Source of the DNA: a virus
Taxonomy: Duplodnaviria > Caudoviricetes
Virus record (IMG/VR): IMGVR_UViG_3300028048_000040
Location: 278,329-342,328 of that record
Reading direction: 5' to 3' (one strand)
Length of the DNA stretch: 64,000 nt
A program made the position numbers and the translations under genes. The notes under the pieces are model-generated. The model saw only the letters and a program-made list of their open reading frames with translations, made no database searches and was not told the origin of the DNA. How positions within the stretch are numbered: the first letter of the stretch is position 1; the number at the start of each line of letters is the position of its first letter. This document shows positions 22,079 to 47,539 of this stretch, one piece after another.

Positions 22079-22190
22079 CAAAAAAGAAAGCAAGTACAGT
22101 TTGCGGTTGAAACTTGCTTTCTTTTCACCCATATTGGAGGACGGGTATGAAGAAAAGTGTAATGATGGGTCATCACTCCATCACTCACTC
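22079..22190 (-). ncRNA. Candidate small RNA (about 112 nt) with a CCUCC loop
   Basis: Early-type promoter at 22190-22205, three hairpins, terminator with U-run, no ORF. Confidence 0.6.
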
Positions 22191-22268
22191 ACTATAATAA
22201 TATATAACTATAAAAAAATTTACTTGTATAAATTCATAGATTTCACACTTAGATAATCAAATAAAGGG

Positions 22269-22700
22269 GTGGTGAAATTGCCTGTAACATTTGATGATGA
22301 AGCTAATGTACGAGATTATCTATTAGCTGTTAATGATATTAATAGACCTAAAGTAGTAGATATGAAGGATATAAAACCTAATAAATATAATTCTGCTATT
22401 ACTATGATTAGTAGACTTATATTGATTAGGAAGGGTACATATCCTGATCATCCTGATATGGGAATAGATATTGTAGGAAGATATAGATTTGCTTTTGAAG
22501 AAGAAGCTAAAACACTATCTAGAGAGATAGAAGAGCAGGCAAATAAATATCTTCCAGAATTTAGTCCTATTCAAGTTTATTGTGAATTGATTCAAGACAA
22601 TGAAAAGCATAAGATTAATATCCATATCATAATAAATGAAGTTGAGTATCTTTTAGTTTACAATATCTCTGATAATACATTAGAGGGATTATTAGAGTAG
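22269..22700 (+). CDS. Baseplate wedge protein, gp25/GPW-like
   Basis: LILIRKGTYPDHPDMGIDI..YLPE pattern; late-type promoter at 22244. Confidence 0.75.
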   Translation: MVKLPVTFDDEANVRDYLLAVNDINRPKVVDMKDIKPNKYNSAITMISRLILIRKGTYPDHPDMGIDIVGRYRFAFEEEAKTLSREIEEQANKYLPEFSPIQVYCELIQDNEKHKINIHIIINEVEYLLVYNISDNTLEGLLE

Positions 22701-22712
22701 GGGTGAATGTAG

Positions 22713-23072
22713 TTGAAACTAATTAAGGTGAGATATAAAGAAGGTCAAGGATATCCATTAGATAGAGATTACTATATAATGGATTTTAGATTTGATGAAT
22801 CTAAAATGATCTATGTGGGGGAAAATGAACCACCTAAACATCCAGAAATTTGGAAATCTGGAGAATGTCCTGGTATAATCACTACTGATTATTCTAAATT
22901 TAGAGATAGTCATCATGGTACTATGCATAATGGCAAACTAGATTCAGGAGCAGTAGAAGAATTATTAGATAAGGGTATAGAAGGGGCTAAAGGAAGAGCT
23001 GATGAAAGACAAAAGAAAATAGGGAGCTCTTTCAGAAAAATAAAACATTTAAAAAGAAAGAAGAAGAACTAG
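22713..23072 (+). CDS. Hypothetical protein with basic C-terminus
   Basis: 119-aa ORF within the late operon. Confidence 0.6.
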   Translation: MKLIKVRYKEGQGYPLDRDYYIMDFRFDESKMIYVGENEPPKHPEIWKSGECPGIITTDYSKFRDSHHGTMHNGKLDSGAVEELLDKGIEGAKGRADERQKKIGSSFRKIKHLKRKKKN

Positions 23073-23083
23073 GAGGTTTAGTA

Positions 23084-25099
23084 ATGGCTGAAAAAGAACA
23101 ACTGTCTCTTGCTGATCTTGGTTTAGAAAAGGAAGAGACACCAGCACAGAAAGCAGAAAAAACAGTAACAGAATCTGTTCAGGATAATGGTGTTGCTGTT
23201 AAGAAAGCAACAGTACGAGATATGAGCGAGGTTCAGCAAGTAGTTACATCTAGTCCTGCTAAGAAACCTGTATCATATGCTCCTGTACATAATAATCAGG
23301 AGAGAAGAAAATCAGAAGATCTTTCTCAGGCAAGAGTAATTACTGATGTAAATGAAATTGCTAAGATCAAATATAATCCCACTGATAAATACGTTCAGAA
23401 GGTAAAGAAGAATCAGCAAGATCTATTAGAATTAGCTGATAAGGGTATTGAACGTACTATCAAAGAGATGACAGCTCCTGATGGTAGAATTACTCAGGCT
23501 AAGCATGAGTATGTTAGAACTAAATATGAAGAGCTCTTAAATAGAGCAAAGAAAAGCAAACAGCTTGCTGGAAAAATTAAAGCGCTTCAGGATATGATGG
23601 ATTCTGATGCTAGATTTGATGATTGCAATGAATATGAGAAACATGGATACATTCTCTGGAATATAGCTCATGATGATACAGTAGAAACAAATGATGACTA
23701 CTTTGGTATCAAAGCAAATAAAGAAGCTAAGAAACAGAGAATGGTTCGCAATTCTCGTGATGCTAAGTTAGAATTGGATAAGATGAATGAAGAACCAGTA
23801 GATGATATTTATAATGATGATCAGACTATTGTGGTTTCTTCTAATGATCCAGTTCTTCCATTTAAAGATACTACTAAGAAAAAAGAAGTTAAGAAAGAGG
23901 ATACTTCTCTTAAACTAGAAGATCCTACCAATCTTGATTCTGATTTAGTACTAGATGATGAACCAGAAGAAAAAGAAGAAGTTAAAGAAGAACCCACTTC
24001 TACTCTAAAAGAAGAAAAATCTGAAATTGAGTTAGAAGAAGATGATACTGAAGACGATTTCCAGTTATCTGATGAAGATCAGAAAAAGATTCTTACTAAC
24101 TATAAAGAACAGTTAGAATATAGCCTTGGTATTAATAATATTACTAACCTTAAAGGATTCACCATCTCTAATAAAAGTATTAAACTTAGTAATGCTCTTC
24201 AGGGTGGTACTTATAAGAAGACTGCTACTTGGGGATTGCAGTTTGCAGGTCAAGCTATTGAAATGACTCCTCTTTCTGGTGAAGAGTTGATTACTCTTAA
24301 TCCACAACAGACAGCATATGATACTGTAGCAGGTTTAAGAACAGTATTCTCCATTATCTATCGTCATATTGCAGATTCTAAGAAACCTGAATTTGAAACT
24401 TGGTTAAAACAGATTTCAGATTATGATGTAGATTCTCTATTGTTTGCAGTCTATGTAGCTAACTTTAAAGATACTAATATTGTCACTTATCAGTGCACCA
24501 ATAAGAAGTGTCAGAATGTATTCATCAAGAAGTTAGATGTAATGGATATGCTTAAGTTCCCGAATGATGAAGTAAAAGAATCTTTCTTAAAAGTATTAAG
24601 AAAAGATACTCAGGGAACTAATCTCTTTAGAACTAATCCTGTTGCTATCAATAATAGATATGCATTCGGTTTTGTTACTCAGTCTGCATATTCTTCTCTA
24701 TTTGAACCTGCAGCTCTATCTGAAGAGTTCAGTAAGAAATTTAAGCCTATTCTTGATATCATGCCTAATATTGATACAATATATAAGATTGATCAAGAGA
24801 ATAGAACTCTCTTACCAATTACTTTTGGTGAAGCAGATACTTTCCAGAAGACTGTAATGAGAAAAGTTAAAGGTATTGCATCTATCATGAAGAGCTTTAC
24901 TCCAGATGAAAGAGCATTAGTAGTTTCTGAAGCAGGTAGGATTTCACTTACATTTAGTAGTGATAAGATTACTTATCATATTCCTGAATCTAAGTGCCCT
25001 GTATGTGGTGAGCATATTGAAGAAACCACTACTACTCCTCTTGATCTACTTTTTACGCGTGCCCAATTACCGATCATAGCAGCCTCTATTCAAGAGTAA
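23084..25099 (+). CDS. Tail/baseplate assembly chaperone (T4 gp26-like C-terminal region with Zn ribbons)
   Basis: EMTPLSGEE, YQCTNKKC and CPVCGEH motifs; long acidic N-terminal region; next to the gp25-like gene. Confidence 0.6.
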   Translation: MAEKEQLSLADLGLEKEETPAQKAEKTVTESVQDNGVAVKKATVRDMSEVQQVVTSSPAKKPVSYAPVHNNQERRKSEDLSQARVITDVNEIAKIKYNPTDKYVQKVKKNQQDLLELADKGIERTIKEMTAPDGRITQAKHEYVRTKYEELLNRAKKSKQLAGKIKALQDMMDSDARFDDCNEYEKHGYILWNIAHDDTVETNDDYFGIKANKEAKKQRMVRNSRDAKLELDKMNEEPVDDIYNDDQTIVVSSNDPVLPFKDTTKKKEVKKEDTSLKLEDPTNLDSDLVLDDEPEEKEEVKEEPTSTLKEEKSEIELEEDDTEDDFQLSDEDQKKILTNYKEQLEYSLGINNITNLKGFTISNKSIKLSNALQGGTYKKTATWGLQFAGQAIEMTPLSGEELITLNPQQTAYDTVAGLRTVFSIIYRHIADSKKPEFETWLKQISDYDVDSLLFAVYVANFKDTNIVTYQCTNKKCQNVFIKKLDVMDMLKFPNDEVKESFLKVLRKDTQGTNLFRTNPVAINNRYAFGFVTQSAYSSLFEPAALSEEFSKKFKPILDIMPNIDTIYKIDQENRTLLPITFGEADTFQKTVMRKVKGIASIMKSFTPDERALVVSEAGRISLTFSSDKITYHIPESKCPVCGEHIEETTTTPLDLLFTRAQLPIIAASIQE

Positions 25100-25101
25100 C
25101 T

Positions 25102-25266
25102 ATGATAGTGGATAATTCTAAGGGCAAAACAACATATGAAGAAGCTTTGAAGTATGATGTTGGATTCTTAAATTATTTATGGTATAAAACTATCAGAGAA
25201 AATAAAGCTCGTTCTAAGGATCCAAAAATGCAAAAAATGGCTGAACTGATGGAAGACGAAATGTAG
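25102..25266 (+). CDS. 54-aa ORF not in the track; probable -1 frameshift extension of 23084..25099
   Basis: MIVDNSKGKTTYEEALKYDVGFLNYLWYK...; frame open from 25045; weak SD; CTTTTTA at 25049-25055. Confidence 0.55.
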   Translation: MIVDNSKGKTTYEEALKYDVGFLNYLWYKTIRENKARSKDPKMQKMAELMEDEM

Positions 25267-25289
25267 AATAACGAGGAGGATATCATATT

Positions 25290-25601
25290 ATGAATCTCTT
25301 AGATTTTCGTAGTAAAATAATATCCTCTGATTCAGATAGAATAGAAACAGATAACTTTTTCTCTGAAGAGGTTACAATGTTCAATATCTTAAATGGTTCA
25401 TTTAGAACAGAAGACATTGAATCTATCAGAGTAGATAAAATAAATAGAAATGTTTCTGTAGATATATCTTCAGAAGATATAGCTAGAAATGCAGAGTTCA
25501 ATCTAGATAAACAAATTGTTCCTGGAAGTTATGTTCCTCTTTATAGAGTTAATGTAACTAGAAACAATAAAACTCTTAACTTTACTTTAGATGAAGTATA
25601 A
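25290..25601 (+). CDS. Hypothetical protein
   Basis: GAGGAGG SD; followed by terminator at about 25612-25640. Confidence 0.7.
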   Translation: MNLLDFRSKIISSDSDRIETDNFFSEEVTMFNILNGSFRTEDIESIRVDKINRNVSVDISSEDIARNAEFNLDKQIVPGSYVPLYRVNVTRNNKTLNFTLDEV

Positions 25602-25667
25602 CAGAAAAGTTACCAGAGTACCTAATTGGTACTCTGGTATCAATTTTTGCAAAGTAAAAAATTTTTC

Positions 25668-25834
25668 AGTTATATACCATTCCTATGAGTATAAGTCTGA
25701 GGAAGGAATAGATAAAATGATATTTTTGAAGAGGGTTCAAAATTTTAGTTATATACTATTCTATTGAGGTGAGTCTGAGGGAGGAATAGTCAAAATGAAT
25801 ATCTTTCTTTTTTTATAAATATATTATATATATG
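25668..25834 (+). promoter_or_regulatory. Three tandem early-type promoters, the first two in an imperfect direct repeat of about 52 bp
   Basis: ATATAYYAT-N5-TG at 25672, 25751 and 25819; shared AGTCTGAGGRAGGAATAG after the first two. Confidence 0.75.
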
Positions 25835-25856
25835 AATAAAGAAAGGAGGAATTAAG

Positions 25857-25916
25857 ATGGAAGATGAAAGCATTGATATTGGACTTTGGGATGTTGATGA
25901 TTTTGAGGAGGAATAA
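25857..25916 (+). CDS. 19-aa acidic micropeptide MEDESIDIGLWDVDDFEEE
   Basis: AAAGGAGG SD, triple promoter upstream, paralogous to the next ORF. Confidence 0.75.
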   Translation: MEDESIDIGLWDVDDFEEE

Positions 25917-25918
25917 AA

Positions 25919-25999
25919 ATGGAACTAGAGATTGTAGAAGATAGTGAATTTGACGTTGGTTTATGGAGTGATGATGAATTTGAAACTGATGAAGAATAA
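25919..25999 (+). CDS. 26-aa acidic micropeptide MELEIVEDSEFDVGLWSDDEFETDEE
   Basis: GAGGAGG SD inside the previous ORF; terminator follows. Confidence 0.75.
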   Translation: MELEIVEDSEFDVGLWSDDEFETDEE

Positions 26000-26024
26000 A
26001 TATCAGTTTCAAATTCAAAAAATA

Positions 26025-26055
26025 ATAGAACAGGAATAACTCCTGTTCTATTTTT
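26025..26055 (+). terminator. Terminator of the micropeptide unit
   Basis: TAGAACAGGA/TCCTGTTCTA followed by a T-run. Confidence 0.8.
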
Positions 26056-26097
26056 CTGCAGAAACAATATGATAAGAAAAAATCTTAATTTATAGGA

Positions 26098-27855
26098 GTG
26101 TTGAATATGCAAAATTCTAAAAAACCAGTAAAACATTTAAAACTAGAACCATTGGATGCTAATAAGTTTATTAAAGTAAATAAACTAAAGGTTATTACTA
26201 ATCCAGTTTATTTTGATAGAACTGGCATTCCTACTCCAGATGGTTTACTCTCTAATGAAATCTTTGGTGTTACATCCAATGATAGAACAGAGATATTTGC
26301 ATATATACCATTAGCAGGTGAATCTTTTTTACATCCATTAGCATATAAAACCTGGTGTAGATTAGATTCTAATGTTAAGATGTGTGTATTTGAATTAGAT
26401 ACTTTTAGATTAGATAAAGAAACAGGAAAACTAGTACCAGATCCTAATGGTGGTACTGGTCTTAAATTTTTGAAAAAGATAATTAAAGATGTGGATTTTA
26501 AGAGAACTCAATCTCTAAAGAGAGAAGTTAAGATTAATTTCTTAGAGACCTATAAAGACAAACTCTTTATGGATAATCTCATTGTTATGCCTGCAGGATA
26601 TAGAGATGTTAATACAGAACAATCTAGAATGGGTGTAGGTGAGATTAATAAGTTATATGATAACGTCTTAAGAGATGTAAATGCTCTTAAAGAATCAGAA
26701 GATTATGGTCTTTCTATGAATGGAGCACTTAGAGGAAGAATCCAAGAAGGATTAGTTGCTATTTATGATTGGATTTGTTTTGGTAGATTTAATGGAGTAG
26801 ATTCTCCTGCTACAGGTCTATCTAGAAAACTAGGTCTTATTCGTAGAGCTGGTATGAGAAGAACATTTGACTGGGGTGCTAGACTTGTTATTTGTTCACA
26901 GAATTTAAGAGTAGAATCTCTAGATGATCTAGAAATAGATACAGATTCTATTGGATTACCATTAGCAGCATTATGTGCCAACTTCTATCCATATATGATC
27001 TATCATATTAGACAATTCTTTGAAAATAACTTCTCATCTGTTAAATATATGCAAGTTATGTATATGAGTGAAAAGGATAAATCTAAACCACCATTCTATG
27101 CAGATATTATTAGTTGGAGAGAAGAATTCTCTGACGAAAGAATTAAGAAAGAACTAGATAGATTCATGCATGGTTCTTCTAATAGATTTGTTCCTATAGA
27201 ATTGCCTATACCTTCTCAATATGAAAGAATGGGTAATAGACAATACAAAGCATATATTAAATTCAGAGGTAGACAAGTAACAACTAAAGAAGCAGCTGAA
27301 GCATTGGCTAAAGGAACAGAATTTAACTTTGAATCATTGCCTCTTGTTCTTAGACCTCTTACATGGGCAGATATAATTTATATGGCTGCAAAAGAGATAG
27401 TCAAAGATAAGATGACTCTTATCACTCGTTATCCTATGGATTCTTATTGGAATCAATTTCCTGCTAGAATAGTAGTCTTATCTACTATTGAAACTGAACC
27501 AATGATAATAAATGGCAAACTATATAAAAAGTATCCAAAGATTAGAAAGTCTGATATTTTAAAGAATAGTTCAAATAAATGGATAGATGTTGCTACACCA
27601 AATAATGCTAGACTTGGAACATTTGGAGCTGACTTTGATGGAGATACAATCAGTTCTAAAACTCCCTTCTCAATTGAAGCAAATAAGGAATTATATGATA
27701 TTACTAATAGTAAAATGAATTACATTGGTCTTACTGGTATTAATGAAATTACCACTTCTAAAGAAGGATTACAAGCTCTTTATAATCTTACTTTAGTATT
27801 ACCAGAAGATAAAGATAAAATGACTAAACTTACATTAGCTGACTTTGGTTATTAA
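26098..27855 (+). CDS. Phage multisubunit RNA polymerase beta-prime subunit (catalytic; probably virion RNAP)
   Basis: DGLLSNEIFG, VMPAGYRD, RYP and GADFDGD catalytic motif; preceded by late-type promoter at 26063. Confidence 0.92.
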   Translation: MLNMQNSKKPVKHLKLEPLDANKFIKVNKLKVITNPVYFDRTGIPTPDGLLSNEIFGVTSNDRTEIFAYIPLAGESFLHPLAYKTWCRLDSNVKMCVFELDTFRLDKETGKLVPDPNGGTGLKFLKKIIKDVDFKRTQSLKREVKINFLETYKDKLFMDNLIVMPAGYRDVNTEQSRMGVGEINKLYDNVLRDVNALKESEDYGLSMNGALRGRIQEGLVAIYDWICFGRFNGVDSPATGLSRKLGLIRRAGMRRTFDWGARLVICSQNLRVESLDDLEIDTDSIGLPLAALCANFYPYMIYHIRQFFENNFSSVKYMQVMYMSEKDKSKPPFYADIISWREEFSDERIKKELDRFMHGSSNRFVPIELPIPSQYERMGNRQYKAYIKFRGRQVTTKEAAEALAKGTEFNFESLPLVLRPLTWADIIYMAAKEIVKDKMTLITRYPMDSYWNQFPARIVVLSTIETEPMIINGKLYKKYPKIRKSDILKNSSNKWIDVATPNNARLGTFGADFDGDTISSKTPFSIEANKELYDITNSKMNYIGLTGINEITTSKEGLQALYNLTLVLPEDKDKMTKLTLADFGY

Positions 27856-27916
27856 TCACATTCAAGTAAATCAATATTATGCTTAATCTTTTAATTAGAG
27901 AGGAGAGCTTAGAGTC

Positions 27917-29413
27917 ATGCAATATATTCCTATTTCGGAAGTACAGCGCAGAAAAAACACATTTAATTACCAGCTATTTATTCCAGAATCGTATCCATTG
28001 TTTGAATCTTACCAAGATATATATAACTATGATAACCTAAGACATTCAGTTTATAAGTGGGATTCTTATTCTAATAATGCAGAAAAGAATATTAATCAAG
28101 CATTATCTTTATTAGAAGTGGTGTTTAAAGAAGGAGTAGATTATGAGCAAGAAGAATTAACTCAGATGATTAGTGACAGAGTTATTTCTCATCTAGGTTC
28201 TCCTGTTATATTTAAGAAGATCCTTCCAAAACATACCGGAATATCTGAAAGTGCTAAAGAAACTTTAATAGAATCTACAAATAAACTTATTGAATGTGAT
28301 AGAGTACTAGAGAATCACTCTCTAGTATCTAAAAGATTTAATATAGATAAATTTGTATCTCGTAATATTATATATGAAGATGCATTTACTGAAACAGTAT
28401 ATACACTTTGTTCTCTTATTGATACTTATAATATGGATATGAAGTCTAAGTTTGCTACTAGTGCTGAACTTGCTTTATACTGTATTAATGAATCAGGAGA
28501 GAATATACCAGAACAAAAGATCATAGAATCAGTTATAGATTATTTTGCTATTTATCACAGAGATAATGATATGCAGAAGTTTGCTGATAATATCTATACA
28601 GCTACAAAGAAAGATCCATTTATTCAAGATTCTATTGTAGAGAACTATCTGAACTACCTTATGGATGTGAATGATAAGATTCAAGAAGAACTACAGAACT
28701 TTGATGAAGAAGTCATTAAGAAATATAATGATGACAGCACTTCTATTTTTGAAACATGTAAAGTATTAGATGGATCTTTAAGAAGTTTATGTGAACTAGC
28801 ATTCTTAGATAAAGCAAAAGAAGTTATTACTAAGATTAAATTAGCTCCAGCTAAATCAGTTGCTATGATTAAAGAAGGTATACGTTCTTTATTAGTTCCT
28901 ACTAGATTACAGGATATCAAAGAAGGAACTAAGAATGCTCTTTCTTTAATTTTTTATTCTGCAATTACAATTGCATGTATTCCTACTGGAGGTCCAGTAG
29001 CTGCTTTATTAGGTGCAGCATCTAGTATTATCATTGCTAAGCATATGGATAAACAGTATCTTAGAGATGCTATGCAAGAATGGAGAGAACATAAGTATTC
29101 TGTAGAAAGAAAACTTAAAGAATGTACTGATCCAGATAAGAAGAGAAAACTAGAGCAATACCTAGATGAAGTAGATAAAAATATTGAAACTCTAGAAAAA
29201 GAATATGAAAAATCTAGAGATAAGACTTTGCCAGAGCTTAGAACTGAACATGAAAAGAGAATAGCATCTCCAGATTATAAGATTAAATCTTTCCAAGTAA
29301 ATCCTCATGGTCAAGAAATTGGCACCAAGAGTCCAGATGATGTATTTAACCAGGTTAAGAAAACTGGTACTACAGATATAAATATAAACCATAATATGGA
29401 TGATGATGAATAA
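27917..29413 (+). CDS. Putative virion (head) structural protein
   Basis: Late-type promoter at 27857; upstream of the scaffold-like and capsid genes; coiled-coil C-terminus. Confidence 0.55.
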   Translation: MQYIPISEVQRRKNTFNYQLFIPESYPLFESYQDIYNYDNLRHSVYKWDSYSNNAEKNINQALSLLEVVFKEGVDYEQEELTQMISDRVISHLGSPVIFKKILPKHTGISESAKETLIESTNKLIECDRVLENHSLVSKRFNIDKFVSRNIIYEDAFTETVYTLCSLIDTYNMDMKSKFATSAELALYCINESGENIPEQKIIESVIDYFAIYHRDNDMQKFADNIYTATKKDPFIQDSIVENYLNYLMDVNDKIQEELQNFDEEVIKKYNDDSTSIFETCKVLDGSLRSLCELAFLDKAKEVITKIKLAPAKSVAMIKEGIRSLLVPTRLQDIKEGTKNALSLIFYSAITIACIPTGGPVAALLGAASSIIIAKHMDKQYLRDAMQEWREHKYSVERKLKECTDPDKKRKLEQYLDEVDKNIETLEKEYEKSRDKTLPELRTEHEKRIASPDYKIKSFQVNPHGQEIGTKSPDDVFNQVKKTGTTDININHNMDDDE

Positions 29414-29425
29414 GGAGGTGAAGAA

Positions 29426-30178
29426 ATGGGATTATTTGAACAGATGATCTTAGGTGAAGCAGCTCCTAAACAGAAACCTTCTCCTATGGTTCAACCACAA
29501 GAAAAAGAAGAAGAACCTCCTGATTTTACACAGAGGGAACCTGATCCAGAACCAGATCAAGCTCTTGTTCCTCCAGGTCAAGAACCAGAACAACCAATGC
29601 CTCCACAAGAGGGTGGTGAAGAAGCACCATCTGAAGAAGGAGAAGAAGTTCCTCCAGAAGAACAAGGAATGGAAGAACAGCCTCCTATGGAAGGAGATCC
29701 TAATGCAATGATGGGTGGAGAACCATCAGATGCAGAAGAATTGGATCAGGCTGAAGGTGAGATATTTAAAGATATCAAACCTGAACAGATGAATATTAAG
29801 ATAGAGGAGCTAAAGCAACAGTTTAAGAAGTTTAATTCTGTTGTAGTTGCTGCTATGGAGAAATTAGATGATGTATCTCATACTACATATGATGATGCAC
29901 TTCTAGAGTTCATTGCTAGAAAATTATTAGAGCTTAAAGAACTCTCTAGAGATTATCTACTCAAGACTTTCAATACTAGAACCTATATACAGAATCAGAT
30001 AGAGTTACAAAGAATGATAGTAGCATTTAATTTAGTAACTAATCTGATCTCTGAAATAAGACAATCTAGAATTAAGAGAAAGACTGCTATAGAAGAAAGA
30101 AATGATAAGCTCTTTAAGATAAAAGATAAGACTGAAAAGTTCCCAAATCAGTACCCTAGAGGGTTCGAAGAAGCCTAA
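29426..30178 (+). CDS. Putative scaffold/head assembly protein
   Basis: Pro/Glu-rich disordered N-terminus, ILGE/AAP putative cleavage site, directly upstream of the capsid gene. Confidence 0.55.
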   Translation: MGLFEQMILGEAAPKQKPSPMVQPQEKEEEPPDFTQREPDPEPDQALVPPGQEPEQPMPPQEGGEEAPSEEGEEVPPEEQGMEEQPPMEGDPNAMMGGEPSDAEELDQAEGEIFKDIKPEQMNIKIEELKQQFKKFNSVVVAAMEKLDDVSHTTYDDALLEFIARKLLELKELSRDYLLKTFNTRTYIQNQIELQRMIVAFNLVTNLISEIRQSRIKRKTAIEERNDKLFKIKDKTEKFPNQYPRGFEEA

Positions 30179-30208
30179 ATCTGTAGTCCCTAGAATATTA
30201 ATATATTC

Positions 30209-30221
30209 AACATATTGATAA
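30209..30221 (+). promoter_or_regulatory. Late-type phage promoter HACA-N6-TAR (representative of 21 copies)
   Basis: Copies at 1587, 2664, 7205, 10034, 10797, 22244, 26063, 27857, 30209, 35117, 35876, 40997, 45630, 45737, 47888, 48324, 48925, 50593, 53726, 57164, 59083. Confidence 0.8.
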
Positions 30222-30326
30222 TCAGAGAGGTTTCTTATAACCTTCATATTATATTAATGAAAACTAACTCAACGTTTGATAAAAATTCCTTTAAGTTGAG
30301 ATAGATCCAAAAAGGAGGAAAACTAA

Positions 30327-32306: not shown

Positions 32307-32333
32307 TTTGGATTTTAAAATAAATAAAAACTT

Positions 32334-35081: not shown

Positions 35082-35200
35082 TTTATTCTACCTCCTTTAT
35101 ATTTTATTTTGAAGTCAACAATATATTAGTCCCAGAGAATGTTTTCTCTGAGATTCCCCATACTAAAGAACGTCTAAATTTATTAAAGGAGGCATTTATT

Positions 35201-37091: not shown

Positions 37092-37157
37092 TTAAATTCA
37101 CCAAGGCTATTAGCCTTGGTGAAATTCTATTTATTTTTAACCATATATTATATAAAT

Positions 37158-37295
37158 GAAGTAGTGTGAAATTTAGAACTACTTCCATACTCCTTTCAAC
37201 GTCCTTAGTATTTTATCCTATGTGTACTAAGGAAATAAGCATCATCCCTTTTGGGAGACTGATAACAAGCCAATCTTCATCAGTCTCTATTTTTT
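37158..37295 (+). ncRNA. Candidate small RNA (about 138 nt) with single-stranded ACUCCUUUC
   Basis: Early-type promoter at 37143; hairpin begins at predicted +1; three stems; terminal T-run; no ORF. Confidence 0.6.
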
Positions 37296-37481
37296 ATAGT
37301 AAACCAAAAAATAGAGATATACTATATAAGTGAATCAGTAAAGCTTAGGCTTTACTGATATTCTATTCTCTTTATGAGATTAGATATTTTTTCTTTGAAG
37401 ATAAGTATGTTTAGGATTCTACTATTCCTAAAACATCTTATTGATACAATCATCTATATTATTTAAGGAGGTCATATTATT

Positions 37482-39016: not shown

Positions 39017-40979
39017 CAACATGGCTTTTAATCTAGTAACTAATGTAGTAGATGAAACGCAATTAAGAAAAGCTCAGTTAAGAGCTCTAAAACTATTTGC
39101 AGATACTGTTAAAGGTACTTATGGTCCTATGGGTGAGTATACTGCTTATAGTATGCAAGATCCTAACAATAAACTTAAAGCTATTGTGTCTTATTATACT
39201 AAAGATGGTTTTACTGTATTGAAACATGTAGATACGGATAAACCAATTGAATCTCTTTTAAGAGATGATATCCGCACTATCTGTACTCATGTTATTAAGA
39301 CTATTGGTGATGGTACTACATCTGCTACAATGCTTTCTTATTATATCTTTAAAGGACTTCTTGAACTTCAGTACAAGAGAAAGCTTCCTAAGAGACGTAT
39401 TATAAAAGCATTCAAAGAGATTATCAAAGAAGGTATTTCTGAGATTGAATCCAAAGCAAGAGAATGCACAGTTGATGATATCTATAATATTGCTTATACT
39501 TCTCTTAATGGTAATGAAGAGATGGCAAATATCATCAAAGGTATCTATGAAGAAAGTGGCATGGATGTATTTATTGATGTAAGTGCATCTAATACTAAAG
39601 ATACTATTGTTAAGACTTATAACTCTCTTGTATATGAGGCAGGTTATATTGATTCTTGCTTTATCAATAATGAACAGGATAATACTGTAGATTACCATAA
39701 TCCACATATCTATGTATTTGAATCCCCTATTGATACTCCAGATATGATCAATACTCTTAAACTTATCTTTACTAAAGAGATTACAGAACCAATTCAACAA
39801 TATCAAAAATTGATAGCTAAAGGTAAACAGCCTGATCAACCTCTTTCTCCAGTATTGGTAATCTGTCCTCATATTTCTAGAGATGCTAATAGCTTTATTG
39901 ATCAACTCATTGTAGAGTTTACCAATATGAAGATGGCTCAGCGTCCTCAATTCTGTATTGTATCTAATATTGATAACGATAATGGTTATCTCTTAGATAT
40001 TATGAAACTTACAGAAGCCAAGTTCATCAAGAAGTATATTGATAAAGAATCTTATGAGATTGATAAGAATATTGGTCTAGCTCCTAATGAAATGAATATT
40101 AGAACATTTGCAGGTACTGCTGAACGTATAGTGGTAGATGCTCTTACTACTAAGATTATCAATCCAAAACAGATGTATGATGAGAATGGTGAGTATACTG
40201 AGTTCTATACTAACTATATTAAACAGTTAGAAGATCTTCTCAAAAAGTATGAAGAAACTAGAGAAGAAATAGTTAAGATTGGTAAGCTTAAGAGACGTAT
40301 CAATATTATTAAAGCAAATATGGTAGATCTATATGTAGGTGGTATTGGTACTACAGATAGAATGGCTTTGTCTGATTCTGTAGAAGATGCTGTTCTTAAC
40401 TGTCGTTCTGCTGCTGCTGATGGTGTTGGTTATGCAGCAAACTATGAAGGTTTAAGAGCTTTCAATAAGCTTCTTACTAAGTATGATGCTGAGTTTAAAG
40501 AAGCTGATGAAGCTTATGAACAAGATAAAGAAAATAATAATTTCATTAAAGAGAGAATTCGCACCTTCATCAATAAAGAAGTTGCTACAGTAATCACCAA
40601 ATCTTATATAGAACTCTGTTCACAGATTTATGTTCCCTATTGTGATGATGATCACAAAGATGCTCTTGGTATCGTTGGATTATCCTTAGCTAATAAAGAT
40701 CAATCTAAGAGAAAGCCATTCAATATTTTGACAGAGGAGTATGATGATCTTGTGCTCACTTCTATCAAAACTGAGCCAGCTATCCTAGAAGCTATCTCTC
40801 GTATCATTACTACTCTTTACAATACTAATCAGTTCCTGGTTCCTGATCCAAGATTCAATATCTACCAGATGGATAAAGATGATGAAGAGTATAAGAAACA
40901 GAAAATGCAATCAAAAGAATCAGCAAAAGAAAAAACCGTAGACGTTACTGAATTTATTGATGATGAATCTGAAAAGTAA
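38994..40979 (+). CDS. groEL: GroEL-like chaperonin (start probably 39021)
   Basis: TVKGTYGPMG, TKDGFTVLK, GDGTTSAT, VEDAV motifs; no GGM tail. Confidence 0.9.
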   Translation: MMIIRRINNMAFNLVTNVVDETQLRKAQLRALKLFADTVKGTYGPMGEYTAYSMQDPNNKLKAIVSYYTKDGFTVLKHVDTDKPIESLLRDDIRTICTHVIKTIGDGTTSATMLSYYIFKGLLELQYKRKLPKRRIIKAFKEIIKEGISEIESKARECTVDDIYNIAYTSLNGNEEMANIIKGIYEESGMDVFIDVSASNTKDTIVKTYNSLVYEAGYIDSCFINNEQDNTVDYHNPHIYVFESPIDTPDMINTLKLIFTKEITEPIQQYQKLIAKGKQPDQPLSPVLVICPHISRDANSFIDQLIVEFTNMKMAQRPQFCIVSNIDNDNGYLLDIMKLTEAKFIKKYIDKESYEIDKNIGLAPNEMNIRTFAGTAERIVVDALTTKIINPKQMYDENGEYTEFYTNYIKQLEDLLKKYEETREEIVKIGKLKRRINIIKANMVDLYVGGIGTTDRMALSDSVEDAVLNCRSAAADGVGYAANYEGLRAFNKLLTKYDAEFKEADEAYEQDKENNNFIKERIRTFINKEVATVITKSYIELCSQIYVPYCDDDHKDALGIVGLSLANKDQSKRKPFNILTEEYDDLVLTSIKTEPAILEAISRIITTLYNTNQFLVPDPRFNIYQMDKDDEEYKKQKMQSKESAKEKTVDVTEFIDDESEK

Positions 40980-41102
40980 AATTTTATATTAGAACGTACA
41001 AAATAATAGTGCGTTATCTGCTGTTTACTCTTAACTATTGTGGAGTAGCTTTGGTCGGCTACTCCACAATCTAGTCAAAGAGGTATAAGAAGGTGTTAAG
41101 GA

Positions 41103-41897
41103 ATGACTAAGATCACATTTGATAATTGGATTAAGAATCCTACTGGTGCTAGACCTATGATGGTTCAGCAAAGAGAAATGGCTAAACAGATTTATACTGA
41201 TAAGTATAATAAGATGATGCTGGCTTCTGCTGGAGCTATGAATTATACTTTATGGAAATCACAAAAGGGAGATAGATTTATTATCTTCTTTACCATACCA
41301 TCAGAATCTACTCAGAAGATATTCTATGATGTAGCTGTTGAATTCTATACTAGGGATACAATAGAAACACAGAAAAATAATTTGAATGGATATTATGTTA
41401 GATTCTTCTCTAATGATCCTAACTTTACATTCACTTTTGCTTATGTATATAATAAGCAAGGTCTAATTATCCAAGATCTGAAAAAGAAATTATCTGCTCA
41501 GTCTATAACAGACAAACCAAAAGTTACCAATCCTAATAAAGTAGTAGGATGGGTAAAAGTGTTCTATTTTGCATACTTGTATATGGTTGATCATGGTCTA
41601 TTCAATAAATTGAATTGGTTAAATGCATATACTCTGCAATCTCAACTTACAACTTGCATCAGTAAAGTAATGGATGCTCAAAAGAAACTAGTTCAAGTTC
41701 AATCTTTGAAAGAACTCCAGGATTCTAAAAAGAATCCAAAGATTCCTAATATTGGAAACACTTCTGATCTAGAATCTCTAAAATATAAAGCTAAAAGCAC
41801 TAAGAATGTAGATAAAATGAAGAGTGTTATCAGCAAGATATCTAGAGATAATGTTAAAAGAGCCAACAAAGTCAAATATTCAAAAAGAATAAAATGA
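41103..41897 (+). CDS. Hypothetical protein
   Basis: 264 aa, between the chaperonin and the gp226-like gene. Confidence 0.7.
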   Translation: MTKITFDNWIKNPTGARPMMVQQREMAKQIYTDKYNKMMLASAGAMNYTLWKSQKGDRFIIFFTIPSESTQKIFYDVAVEFYTRDTIETQKNNLNGYYVRFFSNDPNFTFTFAYVYNKQGLIIQDLKKKLSAQSITDKPKVTNPNKVVGWVKVFYFAYLYMVDHGLFNKLNWLNAYTLQSQLTTCISKVMDAQKKLVQVQSLKELQDSKKNPKIPNIGNTSDLESLKYKAKSTKNVDKMKSVISKISRDNVKRANKVKYSKRIK

Positions 41898-41980
41898 CAT
41901 TAAGGAGGTTTCTAAAAATAGGCATATACTATTAAATTGGTATAGGGAGAAAGTAGCATTAAGGAAGAAGGAGAAACAAG

Positions 41981-43780
41981 ATGAACTACAAAAATGCCAA
42001 TGAACTTCATAACGAGGGTATAGGGGATGTTCCTTATGGAGATGATAGATTCTATAGACCTAGAATCAAACTTAATCGGGCATTGTATAAAGAGGGGGAA
42101 TTAATACCTGTAGTAGATTTTGTTGACCACAGTATCTTTAAAGAAGGAGATAGCATAGCAAAGCATGACTTTGCTAATGCTCTAAAAGGTCAACCTGCAA
42201 CTAATGTTGTTTTTAATGCAACAAAACCACCTATTGATCAATGGCAACCAACGTGTGCTGAAGACATGGTCTTCACTCACATTAGAGGAGCTATTATAGC
42301 ACCAGTTCACAAATTTTTTAATATGTCAGATGACGATAGAGCAAATGACATGTTTGACTATTTCTATGTGACAGCTAAGAGATGCTATAATTCTGATACT
42401 AAAGTGAAACCAGATGGAGAAGTATCTATCGGATTTAGAGATCATTGTACTAGCTATCTGAACTATTTTGAAAAGTACTATGATACAGATTTACAGTTGT
42501 TAGGACTGTATAAGGAAATCAAATACATGATAGATTGTGTTCCTAACTATTCTTTAGAAGCATTCAAGTCTGACCTTTGGAAATACTTTATCAATCCAAA
42601 TATGTCTTATGTGGCTTGGAAACTGAACTATGCTTTGGATAAGATGACTTTGGAACAGTTCTCCTTAGACTTGAACTATAAGAACAACAAGTCTCCAGTA
42701 TTAGAATACTCTCCTTTCCATGCTAAGATCATGTTAAAGGTGTCAGTTCAACAGAATATGATCATACCTCTTCTGACTCATTTCATAGTAAAGAAGAAAT
42801 ATGATCAATCGGAAACTAAGAATATACTTCTTTCTACTTTTGATTTGTTGTTTCAAGCAGCTGATCTTATATATGGGGTGGATCTCAATTCTAAGATCCT
42901 TGAAACAACATCTTCTAACGTCGAGAAGAATGTATCAAACAATTTGACTCTTTGGGAAATGCAGACTATAAGAGCAAGAAACACTACTACTCATTCTATG
43001 GAGACAGTAGAAAATATAATCATGCAGATAATCCCAAAGTATACCTATTCAAAGAACATCATTCACTTCAATTACAATGCCATCAATAGGGACATTAAGT
43101 TTAAAGTAACTGGAGTACCATATGAGTTTGGTTTTGTTATGCTATCATCTTCTATAAGAGATGATGATAACAACTCTGAATGTGATAAGTTTGAAGCTCA
43201 TTCTGCTAAACTTAATGAGGCTACTATGATTCAAACACTCACTAATTGTCAAGAAACAATGAAGAGAATCATACTCAAATATGGTCCATTTGATGAGAAT
43301 GAAATCATGTTCTATTATAAGAGAATGTGTAAGAATGGTAAGTTTGTTGTTAATAAACTGCAGAATGTGCTTATTACATATCTCTTTGCTAAAGAGTTTG
43401 ATGATCCTCAAGCAGTTAAGATTGTAAATATAAAGAACTATATCATTCTTTGCATTACTGCTAGAAGAATGCTTCAATCTTATAACATGTTCCAGTTACC
43501 ATTCATGATTGGTGGTAAAGTCAATAGAATTGTTACTAAAAAGAATATCAATAAGAAAGAACTTCAAAAGATCAAAGCATCTAAGTTCTTCCCATTGATT
43601 CATGAGAAGTATAATAATGAGAAGATAGAGAACGATACTATATTCTCACTTATTGCACAAGTACTATCTTCTGAGTATGAAACTATTGACTATTGTCATA
43701 GAGAGAATGATGGTTTACAAATCAATATTATTCCTGATTTAGTATCAGAGGAGTTGTTAAGACTAGTGATGCTTATATGA
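41981..43780 (+). CDS. Probable non-virion RNAP promoter-specificity subunit (AR9 gp226/phiKZ gp68-like)
   Basis: Motif order recalled from AR9 gp226 (KRCY, LDLN, K.SV...IIP.L..F, I.PK, DD...SE..E, terminal EELL.L..LI); two genes from the chaperonin as in AR9; early-type promoter at 41924. Confidence 0.7.
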   Translation: MNYKNANELHNEGIGDVPYGDDRFYRPRIKLNRALYKEGELIPVVDFVDHSIFKEGDSIAKHDFANALKGQPATNVVFNATKPPIDQWQPTCAEDMVFTHIRGAIIAPVHKFFNMSDDDRANDMFDYFYVTAKRCYNSDTKVKPDGEVSIGFRDHCTSYLNYFEKYYDTDLQLLGLYKEIKYMIDCVPNYSLEAFKSDLWKYFINPNMSYVAWKLNYALDKMTLEQFSLDLNYKNNKSPVLEYSPFHAKIMLKVSVQQNMIIPLLTHFIVKKKYDQSETKNILLSTFDLLFQAADLIYGVDLNSKILETTSSNVEKNVSNNLTLWEMQTIRARNTTTHSMETVENIIMQIIPKYTYSKNIIHFNYNAINRDIKFKVTGVPYEFGFVMLSSSIRDDDNNSECDKFEAHSAKLNEATMIQTLTNCQETMKRIILKYGPFDENEIMFYYKRMCKNGKFVVNKLQNVLITYLFAKEFDDPQAVKIVNIKNYIILCITARRMLQSYNMFQLPFMIGGKVNRIVTKKNINKKELQKIKASKFFPLIHEKYNNEKIENDTIFSLIAQVLSSEYETIDYCHRENDGLQINIIPDLVSEELLRLVMLI

Positions 43781-44835
43781 CACAAACTAATACTATCCAG
43801 GACCAACTCAGGGAACAGCTCAAGCAGCTGTTCCCTGATTATAAAGAGTCTGGAAATAGAAAAGAATTTATGATTAATTGTCCACTATGTGAAAAAGAAG
43901 GAAGACCTGATCATGGATATCATATGTATATCTCTCTAGGATATGATGATAAACCTCCTATGTATAATTGTTTCAAAAACCATAATCATAGAGGTGTATT
44001 AACAAAATCCTTTCTAGAGCAAAATTCTAGATATCCCCAGTACATGGATACAGGTGTTCTCTCTCAAGTGGCAAAACGTAATTCTGCCTTGTCAGATTTA
44101 GGCAGGTACCGGCAAATTAGACAAGGAAAATATGAATTTTATACACCTTTGTCAAATAGTGAGATAAAAACTAATACAAAATTAGGATATCTCAATAAAC
44201 GTTTAGGCTGCAATCTATCATTGATAGATTTGCAGTCTCTTAAGGTTATATTGAATATTAAAGATTTTTTAGTATATAACAATATAACCAGAATATCTAG
44301 AAGTCAGTATACAGTAGATCTTCTAGATCAGTACTTCATAGGATTTCTTACTAATAACAACTCTACTATCATTCTGAGGAATTTGGTAAAAGAAAGAAAC
44401 AAGTTACCAGAAGTAGTACAAGATAGATATATCAAGTATTCTATAGTAGAAGGAGGATTTAGTGGTTATTATACTATTCCTTCTACTGTAGATATATATC
44501 AGCCAGTTAATATTCATATAGCTGAAGGTACATTCGATATATTATCTGTATATATCAATCTATGTGGAATGAACAATGTACAGAATATCTATTCTAGTAT
44601 AGGTGGTAACTCTTATCTAAATGCTATGAAGTATTATATCCTAGAGTGTGGTATAATCGATCCTATATTCCATCTGTATATAGATAATGATATCCCTAAT
44701 CAGTTCTTAGAACAGATTAAAAGGGTTATAAAACCTCTAAACCTACAAGTCTATATACATATGAATATAGCACCAAATGAAAAGGATTTTGGTGTATCAC
44801 CTGAAAGGATAAAACACTATTATTATGCATTATAG
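43777..44835 (+). CDS. DNA primase (Zn finger plus TOPRIM)
   Basis: CPLC..YNCF, IAEGTFD, YIDND, KDFG. Confidence 0.85.
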   Translation: MTQTNTIQDQLREQLKQLFPDYKESGNRKEFMINCPLCEKEGRPDHGYHMYISLGYDDKPPMYNCFKNHNHRGVLTKSFLEQNSRYPQYMDTGVLSQVAKRNSALSDLGRYRQIRQGKYEFYTPLSNSEIKTNTKLGYLNKRLGCNLSLIDLQSLKVILNIKDFLVYNNITRISRSQYTVDLLDQYFIGFLTNNNSTIILRNLVKERNKLPEVVQDRYIKYSIVEGGFSGYYTIPSTVDIYQPVNIHIAEGTFDILSVYINLCGMNNVQNIYSSIGGNSYLNAMKYYILECGIIDPIFHLYIDNDIPNQFLEQIKRVIKPLNLQVYIHMNIAPNEKDFGVSPERIKHYYYAL

Positions 44836-45631
44836 GGAGGGAATCACAATGTGTGCTATGAGAAGCGACGAACTTAAAAAGAATATCTACATACCTTTCA
44901 CAATCTTTCACAAAGCTGAAAAGTTTGATGAAGAAGGCCATGTCATATCAATAGATGATAATATTAGCATTAAAGATGTGACCTCTGTACAATTTGACAA
45001 AGTGAAATCTGAGTTTGGTCAAGATTTTGATAGAATTAAAGATGTATCTATCAATCTCAAAATCAATGATATCACTCCATTAAGATTATATGAATATGAT
45101 CAAGATTATGGTTATATTCGTTTATTATATATGACTTATACAGATAAGATTAATGTATATCATCCTGAATCTTCTTTATATGTAGAAGAAAAAGACCAGA
45201 TTGATATAATTTGTTTAGATAATGGTACTGATAAGATGTATTCTAGTGATTCATCTATCTTCTTAGTATCTGATGTAGTATCTCTTCACCAAGAGTTTGA
45301 GAAACACATTGGATTATTAGAGAATGTATTTGAAGATGGAGAACGTGCTTATAAGAATGGCTTTGTAGAACTAGAAAGTCTATTAGAAGGAAACCTTCCA
45401 GAGTTTGAGATTTTCTATATGGATGCTGCACATGAAATTCATGATTTCCATGATGTAGCTGTAGCAAATTATCAGCACTTTAAGAAACTGGTAGATTATA
45501 ATCATCTTGAAGCTGTATTTAGACAGTTTGATTATTCTCATCCAAGTGTATTTAAAAGAGGAGAATTCTCTTGGCATAATTTGTTCATGAAGTATATTCA
45601 AGAGCAAACTAAAAATTTAACACTGAACTAA
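44825..45631 (+). CDS. Hypothetical protein
   Basis: 268-aa ORF coupled to the primase gene. Confidence 0.65.
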   Translation: MHYREGITMCAMRSDELKKNIYIPFTIFHKAEKFDEEGHVISIDDNISIKDVTSVQFDKVKSEFGQDFDRIKDVSINLKINDITPLRLYEYDQDYGYIRLLYMTYTDKINVYHPESSLYVEEKDQIDIICLDNGTDKMYSSDSSIFLVSDVVSLHQEFEKHIGLLENVFEDGERAYKNGFVELESLLEGNLPEFEIFYMDAAHEIHDFHDVAVANYQHFKKLVDYNHLEAVFRQFDYSHPSVFKRGEFSWHNLFMKYIQEQTKNLTLN

Positions 45632-45640
45632 CAATATATT

Positions 45641-45736
45641 AGTGGCGTGGTGAACCACTTTGATAAGTAATGGTGAAGTTCCTTTCGGTAAGATTCCCAG
45701 TAGCTGTAATGGCTACTGGGGTTCTTATTGTTTTTT
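45641..45736 (+). ncRNA. Candidate late small RNA (about 95 nt) with GUUCCUUUC
   Basis: Late-type promoter at 45630, 5' hairpin AGUGG/CCACU at +1, terminator 45696-45736; could instead be only a 3' UTR. Confidence 0.4.
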
Positions 45737-45776
45737 CACATCAAGGTAAGCATAACTCTAATAAGGAGGTATAATA

Positions 45777-47195
45777 ATGGGTTCTTTTACCAACAAGCAT
45801 TACAATGAGACAGTACAAAGTTTAGTACAAGGATCACAGGATCGACTTAAAAACCCGTACTATCTTTTTTCTAATAAGTCTCCAACAACTGTAATGTATT
45901 ATAATATTAACTACAAGATGTCTACATTAGACCAAGGAACTAGACAGGTATATGACCATGTAGGAGAGAACTCTCCTTTAAGATTTAACAAAATTATTGA
46001 TTTTCAGTTATATGGTATTCCTAGAATAGAAATAGATTATAACATTGGAGAGTATGGCGTAGAATCTCCAGTAGAAGGAGAAGCATTAATTCTTCCTAAT
46101 ACAGTAATACCATGTGTAGATGATATGTTTACTATCAATTATCTAGTTGATAAACCAGTAATCTTTAGAGTATCAAAAGTATCTATTGATACGTTAGATA
46201 CAGGATCTAACTTCTACAGAATACAGTACTTTATAGATCGCGTAGATTTAGATGCTATTAAGTATCTTAATGGTAAGCAGTTAGTCAATGAATATGTATA
46301 TAAACCTGGTAATATAGGTTCTAATCTAGTATCTGTTATTGCTAAAGGAGATTCAGATACTATAGAGAAGTTGTCTGAAGCAGCTACAGAGATTCTACAT
46401 TACTATGCTGACCTGTTCTTCAAACCATCTATACAGACATTCTGTTATCTCTATACAGGGATATTTATCTATGATCCGTATTTGATCGAGTTCTTAATTA
46501 GGAATAAAGTATATGCTGTGCCAGACAATGAATATTATATGTATATATCTCAAGCAGTACATACTCCTAGGACTTTTAATATAGAATATGAGCATACTAT
46601 ATTTAGAGATATAGAAAAAAGAAATCCTAAACTAAGAACAAACTCTTGTTATATGGTTCCTTGTCATGATCCTAATAGCTTGCTTATGAATAGAATGGAA
46701 GACTACTTTGAGTTGTCTATTAATCTAAAGAACAAACCATTCTCCCCACCTATCAATTGGTTGAATATGGATCTGTTTGATAGGATAGTAAATAATGATC
46801 TATATGATGAAGACGATCCAGATGCTCCTATCTATAGAAATATAATTATAAGATGGATGAATGATAAATCTTACACTGTTACTGATGAAGAATTAGAGAA
46901 TCTTATTAATATATCATATCACCCATGCAAAGATCTATTTTATGAAATTCCTATTCTACTATTCATTCTCAATGATATAGTAACTGGTTTACAAGTAGAT
47001 CTTACTAACTTACCATCTAATGGTAATGGTGCTATTGGTAATACTTCTGCTGTATCTACCACTAATGCATTAGCAGATGATATTACTGTAGATGAATATA
47101 ATAGTGGTGGTAATTGTGGTAGAACTTGTATGTGTCCTAGGGGAGATACATATACCAAACCAGGTACAGATGACTCATATATGACTGGTAGATAG
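45777..47195 (+). CDS. Putative virion structural (neck/head-completion-like) protein
   Basis: Late-type promoter at 45737; beta-rich N-half (GEALILPNTVIPCVDDMF..FRVSKV). Confidence 0.5.
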   Translation: MGSFTNKHYNETVQSLVQGSQDRLKNPYYLFSNKSPTTVMYYNINYKMSTLDQGTRQVYDHVGENSPLRFNKIIDFQLYGIPRIEIDYNIGEYGVESPVEGEALILPNTVIPCVDDMFTINYLVDKPVIFRVSKVSIDTLDTGSNFYRIQYFIDRVDLDAIKYLNGKQLVNEYVYKPGNIGSNLVSVIAKGDSDTIEKLSEAATEILHYYADLFFKPSIQTFCYLYTGIFIYDPYLIEFLIRNKVYAVPDNEYYMYISQAVHTPRTFNIEYEHTIFRDIEKRNPKLRTNSCYMVPCHDPNSLLMNRMEDYFELSINLKNKPFSPPINWLNMDLFDRIVNNDLYDEDDPDAPIYRNIIIRWMNDKSYTVTDEELENLINISYHPCKDLFYEIPILLFILNDIVTGLQVDLTNLPSNGNGAIGNTSAVSTTNALADDITVDEYNSGGNCGRTCMCPRGDTYTKPGTDDSYMTGR

Positions 47196-47476
47196 AAAAA
47201 AGAAATGGAGTTGGCATACCAAACCAACTCCTGGGAATCAGAAATGTTAATTTAAGGGGACCAAGTTATGTTAAATGATTTTGTATAAATTCAAGGAGTT
47301 TATTCACCTCTTTCATATTTATTTAATCATCATTATTCGATTGTATATACTAACAAAATGCTGTTAATATAAAATATATATAAAATTTAACATAACTTGG
47401 GAACATTTCATACCCTAATTCAAACCTTACCACCCTATTTCCTTACATTACCCATGGGAAATATTGCTTCGGTTTC
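47196..47476 (-). ncRNA. Candidate structured RNA (about 280 nt) forming a long rod
   Basis: Early-type promoter at 47476-47491; perfect 16-bp inverted repeat (47260-47275/47385-47400) plus outer 8-bp stem; minus-strand terminator 47196-47231. Confidence 0.6.
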
Positions 47477-47539
47477 ATAATAATAATATATAATTGAAAA
47501 AAAGTTTACTTTACCAGGATAGGTTTTTCCTATCCTGGT

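Follow-up and report, generated by a model that had tools for sequence, protein, structure and literature searches.

Four intergenic loci in a jumbo phage genome, recovered as a 342,328-bp virus record (IMG/VR IMGVR_UViG_3300028048_000040; Duplodnaviria; Caudoviricetes; G+C 31.6%), quite possibly encode short non-coding RNAs that act on ribosome-binding sites. The loci, which we call units 1 to 4, lie at 22190-22079 (minus strand), 37158-37295 (plus), 45641-45736 (plus) and 47476-47196 (minus) of the stretch analysed here, the final 64 kb of the record (the window; 64,000 nucleotides), and all positions are window coordinates unless marked 'genome'. We describe the sequence anatomy of these loci, its recurrence across the genome, the way they are conserved in relatives, and covariation within a stem of unit 2; from these observations it is plausible that the RNAs exist as discrete species and that they act in the manner proposed. 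An earlier note on the window, made from its letters, had described each locus as a phage promoter followed by a hairpin at or next to the predicted transcription start (+1), a terminator and no credible open reading frame (ORF), and all four loci are built in this way.

In the mechanism we propose, the virion RNA polymerase would transcribe units 1, 2 and 4 at an early stage, starting from consensus early promoters, and unit 3 would arise from a late-type promoter lying over the stop codon of the gene upstream, with a terminator held in common with that upstream operon. After 95-280 nt a strong intrinsic terminator would halt transcription, the hairpin at the 5′-end would probably stabilise the RNA, and an exposed C/U-rich tract, kept in units 2, 3 and 4, would pair with the Shine-Dalgarno (SD) regions of phage or host mRNAs and lower their translation. 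The units themselves would behave as small cassettes that are gained, lost and replaced by recombination at repeated promoter and terminator modules.

The proteins encoded in the window, among them a split RNA polymerase beta subunit and a chaperonin, point to a distant kinship with the AR9/PBS1-like jumbo phages, with virion proteins ∼32% identical to their AR9 counterparts, and a megablast search against a phage collection found no near relative. We made our comparisons of the phage under study (G000) with close relatives: a 332,775-bp IMG/VR record (G001), whose flanks around the units are ∼85–94% identical, an identical 57-kb piece, and several metagenome contigs that carry L-numbers below.

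Promoters, terminators and recurrence across the genome

In AR9, differential RNA sequencing (dRNA-seq) mapped early promoters made of an AT-rich core, 6 nt and a G at +1, and late promoters made of AACA, 6 nt and TA or TG, and the phage polymerases terminate strongly at predicted terminators (PMC5312081). Both patterns recur in the phage studied here, the early core with its 6 nt and G+1 as well as the late word, and this phage differs from AR9 in adding a C-form early core and an upstream GTAAAC element. Its early pattern (a core 8-mer with T or C at position 5, 6 nt, G+1) has 86 matches in the genome, 77 of which are intergenic although non-coding DNA makes up 9.8% of the genome in the ORF map, and 60 of these 77 have a same-strand gene start no more than 400 nt away. 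Units 1, 2 and 4 each carry an exact AR9-type early match with a T-form core, placing the predicted G+1 at 22190, 37158 and 47476, respectively. Sigma-70-like sites are not enriched in the genome, with 54 found and 65 expected from shuffles.

We defined an orphan unit as an early promoter followed by a terminator within ∼400 nt, with no SD-led ORF between the two, and by these criteria the 342-kb genome holds 10–13 such units depending on the thresholds used, and at least 12 in our count. The usual layout is a tandem array of promoter, unit, terminator, second promoter and gene, and in each tandem case the gene has its own second promoter ∼15–40 nt past the terminator. Units 1–3 have predicted lengths of 95–138 nt and unit 4 one of 281 nt, where the criterion applied to small RNAs (sRNAs) of the jumbo phage 201phi2-1 was a terminator within 250 nt of the start and no coding sequence. 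Each of the four units has a hairpin at or near the predicted +1 and a terminal hairpin followed by a U-run, and their folding z-scores lie between -4.2 and -5.9 relative to shuffles. The 5′ hairpin is a general trait of the early transcripts of this phage and not a mark specific to the units: a hairpin of -8 kcal/mol or below within the first 40 nt occurs at 35% of early starts and in 2.6% of shuffles.

The early core occurs between genes in 32 copies with T and 45 copies with C at position 5, and many copies are accompanied by the upstream GTAAAC element and a T- or A-run. The two forms may represent different temporal or strength classes, and the T form is commoner in orphan units (9/30 versus 3/44, Fisher P 0.011).

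Unit 3 carries the AR9-type late word (here AACA, 6 nt, TA) at 45630-45641, within an extended 13-mer (45630..45642, plus) that overlaps the stop codon (45629-45631) of a 268-amino-acid gene. The 13-mer has four exact copies and one variant in the genome, where ∼0.1 would be expected; these lie at window positions 45630-45642 and 35117-35129 and at genome positions 23238 (+), 210275 (+) and 65461 (-). Two copies stand before genes and one stands 12 nt before the only tRNA (Arg-tct). The remaining two, at unit 3 and at genome 23238, lie over or against a stop codon, and each leads into a terminated unit of ∼90 nt. The extended 13-mer may be a special class, either a strong promoter or one that serves stable RNAs.

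Structure and conservation of the four units

The early promoter of unit 2 (37122..37157, plus; core 37144-37151, predicted +1 G at 37158) is conserved in G001, L071 and L072, and the predicted RNA body (37158..37295, plus) is 138 nt long with a fold z of -4.3. In the predicted fold, a 5′ hairpin (37158-37185) is followed by an unpaired linker with CUCCUUUC at 37190-37197, a middle hairpin (37202-37233), a second unpaired pyrimidine tract (37245-37252) and a terminator (37254-37288 plus U-run) that has a long loop and is visible by folding only. Every position of the 5′ stem is paired in all four sequences compared, with three of the nine pairs changed on both sides, and the hairpin loop is conserved. 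The C/U word of the linker is kept across four relatives despite their different upstream genes, and it grows to a perfect 10-nt anti-SD word in L071 and L072. The unit as a whole is partly kept in G001 and absent from L073-L075, and it travels with the module of the downstream 253-amino-acid gene while the upstream neighbour varies among relatives.

Just past unit 2 lies the second early promoter, which serves the 253-amino-acid gene (37298..37359, plus, including a covarying 5′ hairpin; C-form core 37318-37325, +1 at 37332). A late-type word (AACA, 6 nt, TG) follows at 37432..37443 (plus), within a leader block of this gene (37411-37450) that consists of the word and a small hairpin and is invariant in seven relatives, exceeding the conservation of the coding flanks. 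Given this invariant block with its late word, the 253-amino-acid gene appears to have early and late promoters in series.

This arrangement bears on an alternative reading of the units, in which they are cis-acting leaders or attenuators: conditional read-through of the terminator would yield a long leader, and the anti-SD tract in it would cover the downstream SD, thereby tuning early versus late expression. Units 1 and 2 do lie directly upstream of same-strand genes, and the SD of the 253-amino-acid gene, itself perfectly conserved, is complementary to the unit 2 tract, but relatives without unit 2 retain the early and late promoters of that gene, and a dedicated second promoter stands at the short distance given above past each terminator. 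A segment of unit 3 in G001 is likewise complementary to the SD-AUG of a small gene inserted just downstream, and the authors of the AR9 study, who found leaders of up to 491 nt, suggested that long leaders may control translation (PMC5312081); on the other side, the folds offer no evident alternative antiterminator pairing, and what lies downstream of unit 4 is a convergent gene, leaving it no gene to lead. Because second promoters are present, the terminators are strong and unit 4 lacks a gene downstream, we favor separate short transcripts and consider the leader reading unlikely.

The predicted body of unit 3 (45641..45736, plus) is ∼96 nt long with a fold z of -4.3, and it doubles as the 3′ untranslated region (UTR) and terminator of the upstream operon. 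It contains a small hairpin in the predicted fold (45647-45658, plus), a UCCUUUC word that is conserved in the alignment of relatives (45680-45686, plus) and an extended terminator found by a consensus scan (45686-45730 plus U-run). The 7-mer is invariant in five relatives while its flanks diverge. The promoter is retained in G001, L065 and L066 and lost in L067, where the 7-mer persists without the promoter and the 5′ part of the unit. As read from the alignment, the terminator stem has a different sequence in L066 and L067 and the hairpin is still formed. The paralogue at genome 23238, which has the promoter in common with unit 3 and a similar terminator, has lost its promoter in G001, and at such losses at either locus the 7-mer and/or the terminator stay.

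In layout, unit 3 has a single terminator ahead of the promoter of the next gene, and its own promoter lies where the upstream ORF ends. The probable true late promoter of that next gene, which encodes a 472-amino-acid virion protein, follows directly after the terminator U-run (45737..45748, plus; CACA, 6 nt, TA), and every relative retains this word, down to those at 61% identity. G001 carries an extra cassette between unit 3 and the virion gene (L011 2631-2952), made of an early promoter, a gene of ∼71–75 amino acids and a terminator, and either end of the insertion bears a copy of the terminator tail and late promoter.

Unit 4 starts from an early promoter conserved in five relatives (47477..47512, minus; core 47490-47483, predicted +1 G at 47476) and has a predicted body of 281 nt (47196..47476, minus; fold z -4.2). 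The predicted fold consists of a 5′ domain (47475-47422) and a 16-bp long-range stem (47400-47385 with 47276-47261), next to which a C-rich tract is left unpaired (47260-47254), and the terminator (47231-47207 plus U-run) was found by the consensus scan. All five variants have this tract at one and the same position, with invariant C's, including those in which no alignment of the body is possible. The five relatives all retain the promoter and the terminator, and only three have a body that can be aligned, that of L066 and L067 being replaced.

The two arms of the long-range stem form a perfect inverted repeat that encloses a spacer of ∼108 nt with 79% A+T; in G001 both arms are altered at the outermost pair, without compensation. 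An early promoter ahead of such a repeat and spacer, with promoter and terminator kept around a variable body, could also describe a transcription-primed replication origin like T4 oriF/oriG, in which transcription from an early promoter enters an AT-rich region that unwinds. The extremes of cumulative GC skew fall at ∼89 kb and at the record end and not at 325.6 kb, however, and the element is absent from relatives at 61% protein identity and has no origin-type repeats that we could see, so that of all the explanations weighed here we give an origin the least credence.

Unit 1 is preceded by an early promoter (22191..22226, minus) composed of an upstream GTAAA element, a T-run and a core 8-mer at 22204-22197, with the predicted +1 G at 22190. 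Its predicted RNA body (22079..22190, minus) is 112 nt long and folds with -40 kcal/mol (z -5.9) into a 5′ hairpin (22190-22155), a small hairpin (22146-22127) with CCUCC in its loop (22140-22136) and a terminator (22126-22081 plus U-run) that, as in unit 2, has a long loop and is visible by folding only. A second early promoter (22041..22056, minus; core 22055-22048) serves the small gene that ends at 21794, and its presence leads us to treat unit 1 as a separate transcription unit. The unit 1 promoter is kept in relatives, where it drives a gene directly (G001, L077) or drives another gene (L076); the body is absent from all three, and in L078 the slot is occupied by a different gene-less unit.

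ORFs within the units were considered as genes and rejected, being without an SD, running through terminators or promoters and not being kept in relatives. The 55-codon sense frame of unit 2 meets a stop in L071 and indels in G001. In unit 4, a 16-codon frame loses its ATG in G001, and the indels relative to G001 have lengths of 1, 2, 1, 1, 11, 3, 2 and 1 and break any reading frame. With the sense frames of units 2 and 4 broken in this manner, it is very improbable that the loci encode micro-proteins on either strand, or that their C/U tracts are a mere mirror of SDs on the opposite strand. Opposite unit 1, GGAGGA does stand 5 nt before the ATG of a 16-codon frame, and opposite unit 2 an SD-like word abuts the ATG of a 48-codon frame, but the latter ATG has a spacing of 1 nt from the SD and is missing from L071 and L072, the antisense strand of unit 3 has no start codon, sigma-70-like words are not above shuffles, and no phage promoter word precedes these frames on the opposite strand. 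The mirror explanation was rejected for the tracts of units 2 and 3. It may hold for a pyrimidine tract outside the four loci, at genome 211211-211230, where a 19/20 match is confirmed and the plus strand reads as SD plus ATG.

Anti-Shine-Dalgarno tracts, candidate targets and turnover

The proposal that the units act on ribosome-binding sites depends on their C/U-rich tracts. Anti-SD 5-mers total 29 in the units and 17.6 in shuffles (P 0.008), and C-containing pyrimidine tracts number 21 versus 12.2 (P 0.0005). A C- or CU-rich word is unpaired in units 1, 2 and 4 (in the last at 47260-47254), and the tracts of units 2, 3 and 4 are conserved beyond their flanks. Since these tracts are both conserved and exposed, we suggest that at least units 2–4 pair with SD regions.

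We scanned the seeds of the units against all phage start regions and obtained a single outlier, unit 3 (z -5.1, of marginal significance), the other units pairing with the SD only. The segment of unit 3 at 45670-45686 can form a 17-bp duplex in which three pairs are G-U and which covers the SD and AUG of an early gene starting at genome 162712. The G001 orthologue of this gene also forms the duplex and related members of its leader family rank high; when the core was held fixed and the flanks were shuffled, 6/200 trials were as good (P ∼0.03). The early gene family in question (genome 162712, 29825(-), 9094(-), 80138(-), 24568(-) and G001 orthologues) has in common a start region composed of the SD, a short spacer and CUUUAUCAUGG. 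The 5′-end of the leader in this family can pair with the start region, and the unit 3 seed resembles that 5′-end.

Several results weigh against the units being RNAs of this kind, and they concern in part the words on which the earlier note had relied. It had quoted an anti-SD-like word for each locus, and such words are present in all four, but at the scale of 5-mers this is the chance level, with 9/12 units containing at least one against 8.1 expected (P 0.41). It had placed the words of the first three units in loops or linkers, which applies to units 1 and 2, but the word in unit 3 is paired or unpaired according to the fold ends chosen. The CCUCC of unit 1 is unpaired but not conserved among relatives, and the ACUCCUU quoted for unit 4 (near 47298-47293) is paired and not conserved, so that of the multi-sRNA anti-SD layer once proposed for this phage, the separate-unit layout and the conserved tracts of units 2, 3 and 4 stand and these two words do not. 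Purine tracts are nearly as frequent as pyrimidine tracts (17 on the reverse complement versus 21), and the units at genome 184841 and 211136 have no exposed C/U tract. In unit 3, an A-to-U change in G001 is uncompensated in the best target, and because an anti-SD word fits almost every SD of the phage, the tracts confer no target specificity.

The wider comparisons point in the same direction. At the gathering score, a search of the whole genome against Rfam matched only tRNA and the RsaE/RoxS covariance models had no match in the units, and a search of 15 unit loci with E-values up to 1 returned only sub-threshold, terminator-like chance matches; the Rfam check thus gave no family for the units. 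None of 30 consensus early promoters in AR9 has a terminator before the gene, and for this reason the AR9 dRNA-seq data cannot vouch for this class of unit. Conservation in relatives, which the earlier note had made a test of its proposal, came out divided: the 5′ stem of unit 2 covaries, but unit 1 is one of 6/12 units missing from G001, with its ∼89% identical flanks, and close relatives have other sequence in place of the bodies of units 1 and 4 while the promoter stays (in unit 4, together with the terminator).

Turnover of this kind could mean that the units are by-products of cassette shuffling, with small cassettes put in, removed and exchanged as the repeated modules of the genome (terminator, early promoter, 5′ hairpin) recombine; an orphan unit would then be an empty or decayed cassette, perhaps transcribed, without a function in trans, whose terminator at most insulates its neighbors. 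The slots of units 1, 2 and 3 are hyperplastic: unit 1 is flanked by two promoter copies and missing in G001, the unit 2 slot has insertions of 1–2 kb upstream in relatives, and the unit 3 slot has gained cassettes with genes of 72–75 amino acids in G001 and L068. Besides units 3 and 4, one other unit is kept in G001, which carries two private units of its own. At genome 152239 the two flank alignments with G001 share 23 nt on the promoter, the mark that an indel between promoter repeats leaves. Every unit is unique in sequence, the unit 4 body has been swapped between a conserved promoter and terminator, and the PeSL cassettes of T4-type phages, discussed below, are an established case of the same logic. 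In this scenario, however, a decayed gene cassette would be expected to leave an SD and not an exposed anti-SD, and conservation or covariation marks the unit 2 stem and the C/U tracts of units 2–4 amid drifting neighbors. In addition, no unit matches a gene or UTR elsewhere in either genome, the only match in comparisons of the units with each other and with the genes and UTRs of both phages being that of unit 3 with genome 23238, and the units favor the strongest promoter form. On balance we regard shuffling by-products as somewhat unlikely, although the rapid turnover and the absence of target specificity keep this explanation close behind that of RNAs acting on ribosome-binding sites.

A bolder version of the latter would be that a dozen or more fast-evolving, cassette-borne RNAs, synthesised by the polymerases of the phage itself, mimic the 3′ tail of 16S rRNA with their exposed tracts and constitute a programmable layer of translation control, either shutting off host or early phage messages or serving as decoys that shield the anti-SD of the ribosome from host defence. 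We consider this improbable in its full form.

One further element, outside the window at genome 133446-133640 (+) (L032), is a GC-rich structured leader or RNA of ∼190 nt that runs from an early promoter to a terminator and precedes a 443-amino-acid gene. Its first 155 nt are kept in G001 and followed there by a 154-nt insertion, and no Rfam family was found for it.

Comparison with known systems

In phages with their own RNA polymerases, the infection timetable is thought to be controlled mainly through promoter classes. If the units are real RNAs and do act on ribosome-binding sites, translation in the AR9/PBS1-like lineage would be subject to an additional, RNA-based layer of control, of which the AR9 transcriptome paper made no report (PMC5312081). 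If they are instead the debris of shuffling, they serve as a warning that a promoter, a hairpin and a terminator without an ORF are insufficient to call an sRNA.

The earlier note knew of no description of such RNAs for AR9-like phages. In the Pseudomonas jumbo phage 201phi2-1, ONT-cappable-seq identified 11 sRNAs running from a transcription start site to a terminator, in a study that also covered phiKZ (PMC11512511), and because short RNAs of this layout were thereby already described, what is new here is the AR9-like setting and the anti-SD reading. The likeness extends to jumbo phages that have their own multisubunit RNA polymerases, to a terminator no more than 250 nt from the start, to sites between genes or in 5′ UTRs, and to a number of about a dozen per genome with one adjoining a tRNA. 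Unlike those sRNAs, which were seen experimentally, the present units are predicted, and their promoters are of the AR9 type. The host here also appears to use strong SDs as Firmicutes do, and neither exposed C/U-rich tracts nor rapid turnover in presence and absence has been reported for 201phi2-1 and phiKZ.

Among bacterial sRNAs, two groups resemble the units in different respects. Type I 3′ UTR-derived sRNAs such as DapZ and MicL have a promoter of their own where the upstream ORF ends and share its terminator. Unit 3 and its paralogue at genome 23238 are alike in that their promoter overlaps or abuts a stop codon and the operon terminator is shared; they differ in that the promoter is a phage late-type word and is lost in some relatives. 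The Firmicutes RNAs RsaE/RoxS and the Spr RNAs of S. aureus have their own promoter, a Rho-independent terminator and C-rich seeds that pair with G-rich SD regions. With these, the units have in common a predicted promoter and terminator of their own and unpaired C- or CU-rich words. They show one main tract in place of repeated C-rich loops, however, and have no Rfam match in sequence or structure; in addition, they are encoded by a lytic-type jumbo phage and are poorly conserved beyond close relatives.

In their genomic behavior, the units resemble the PeSL cassettes of T4-type phages, promoter plus stem-loop modules that bound indels and replacements in hyperplastic regions (PMC2839356, PMC4122927). 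Here, too, composite modules of promoter and stem–loop are repeated in variable regions, the 86 promoter matches often standing right after a terminator hairpin, and indels between close relatives are bounded by the motif, as at genome 152239 and unit 1. PeSLs, in contrast, use host sigma-70 promoters and flank ORFans, whereas the promoters here are of the phage virion-polymerase type and several of the cassettes are without an ORF, holding instead a predicted structured RNA with a conserved tract. The exchange of cassettes described here carries the T4 PeSL idea over to another promoter system, and it shows that small non-coding cassettes, besides ORFans, are exchanged at the promoter and terminator modules of jumbo phages.

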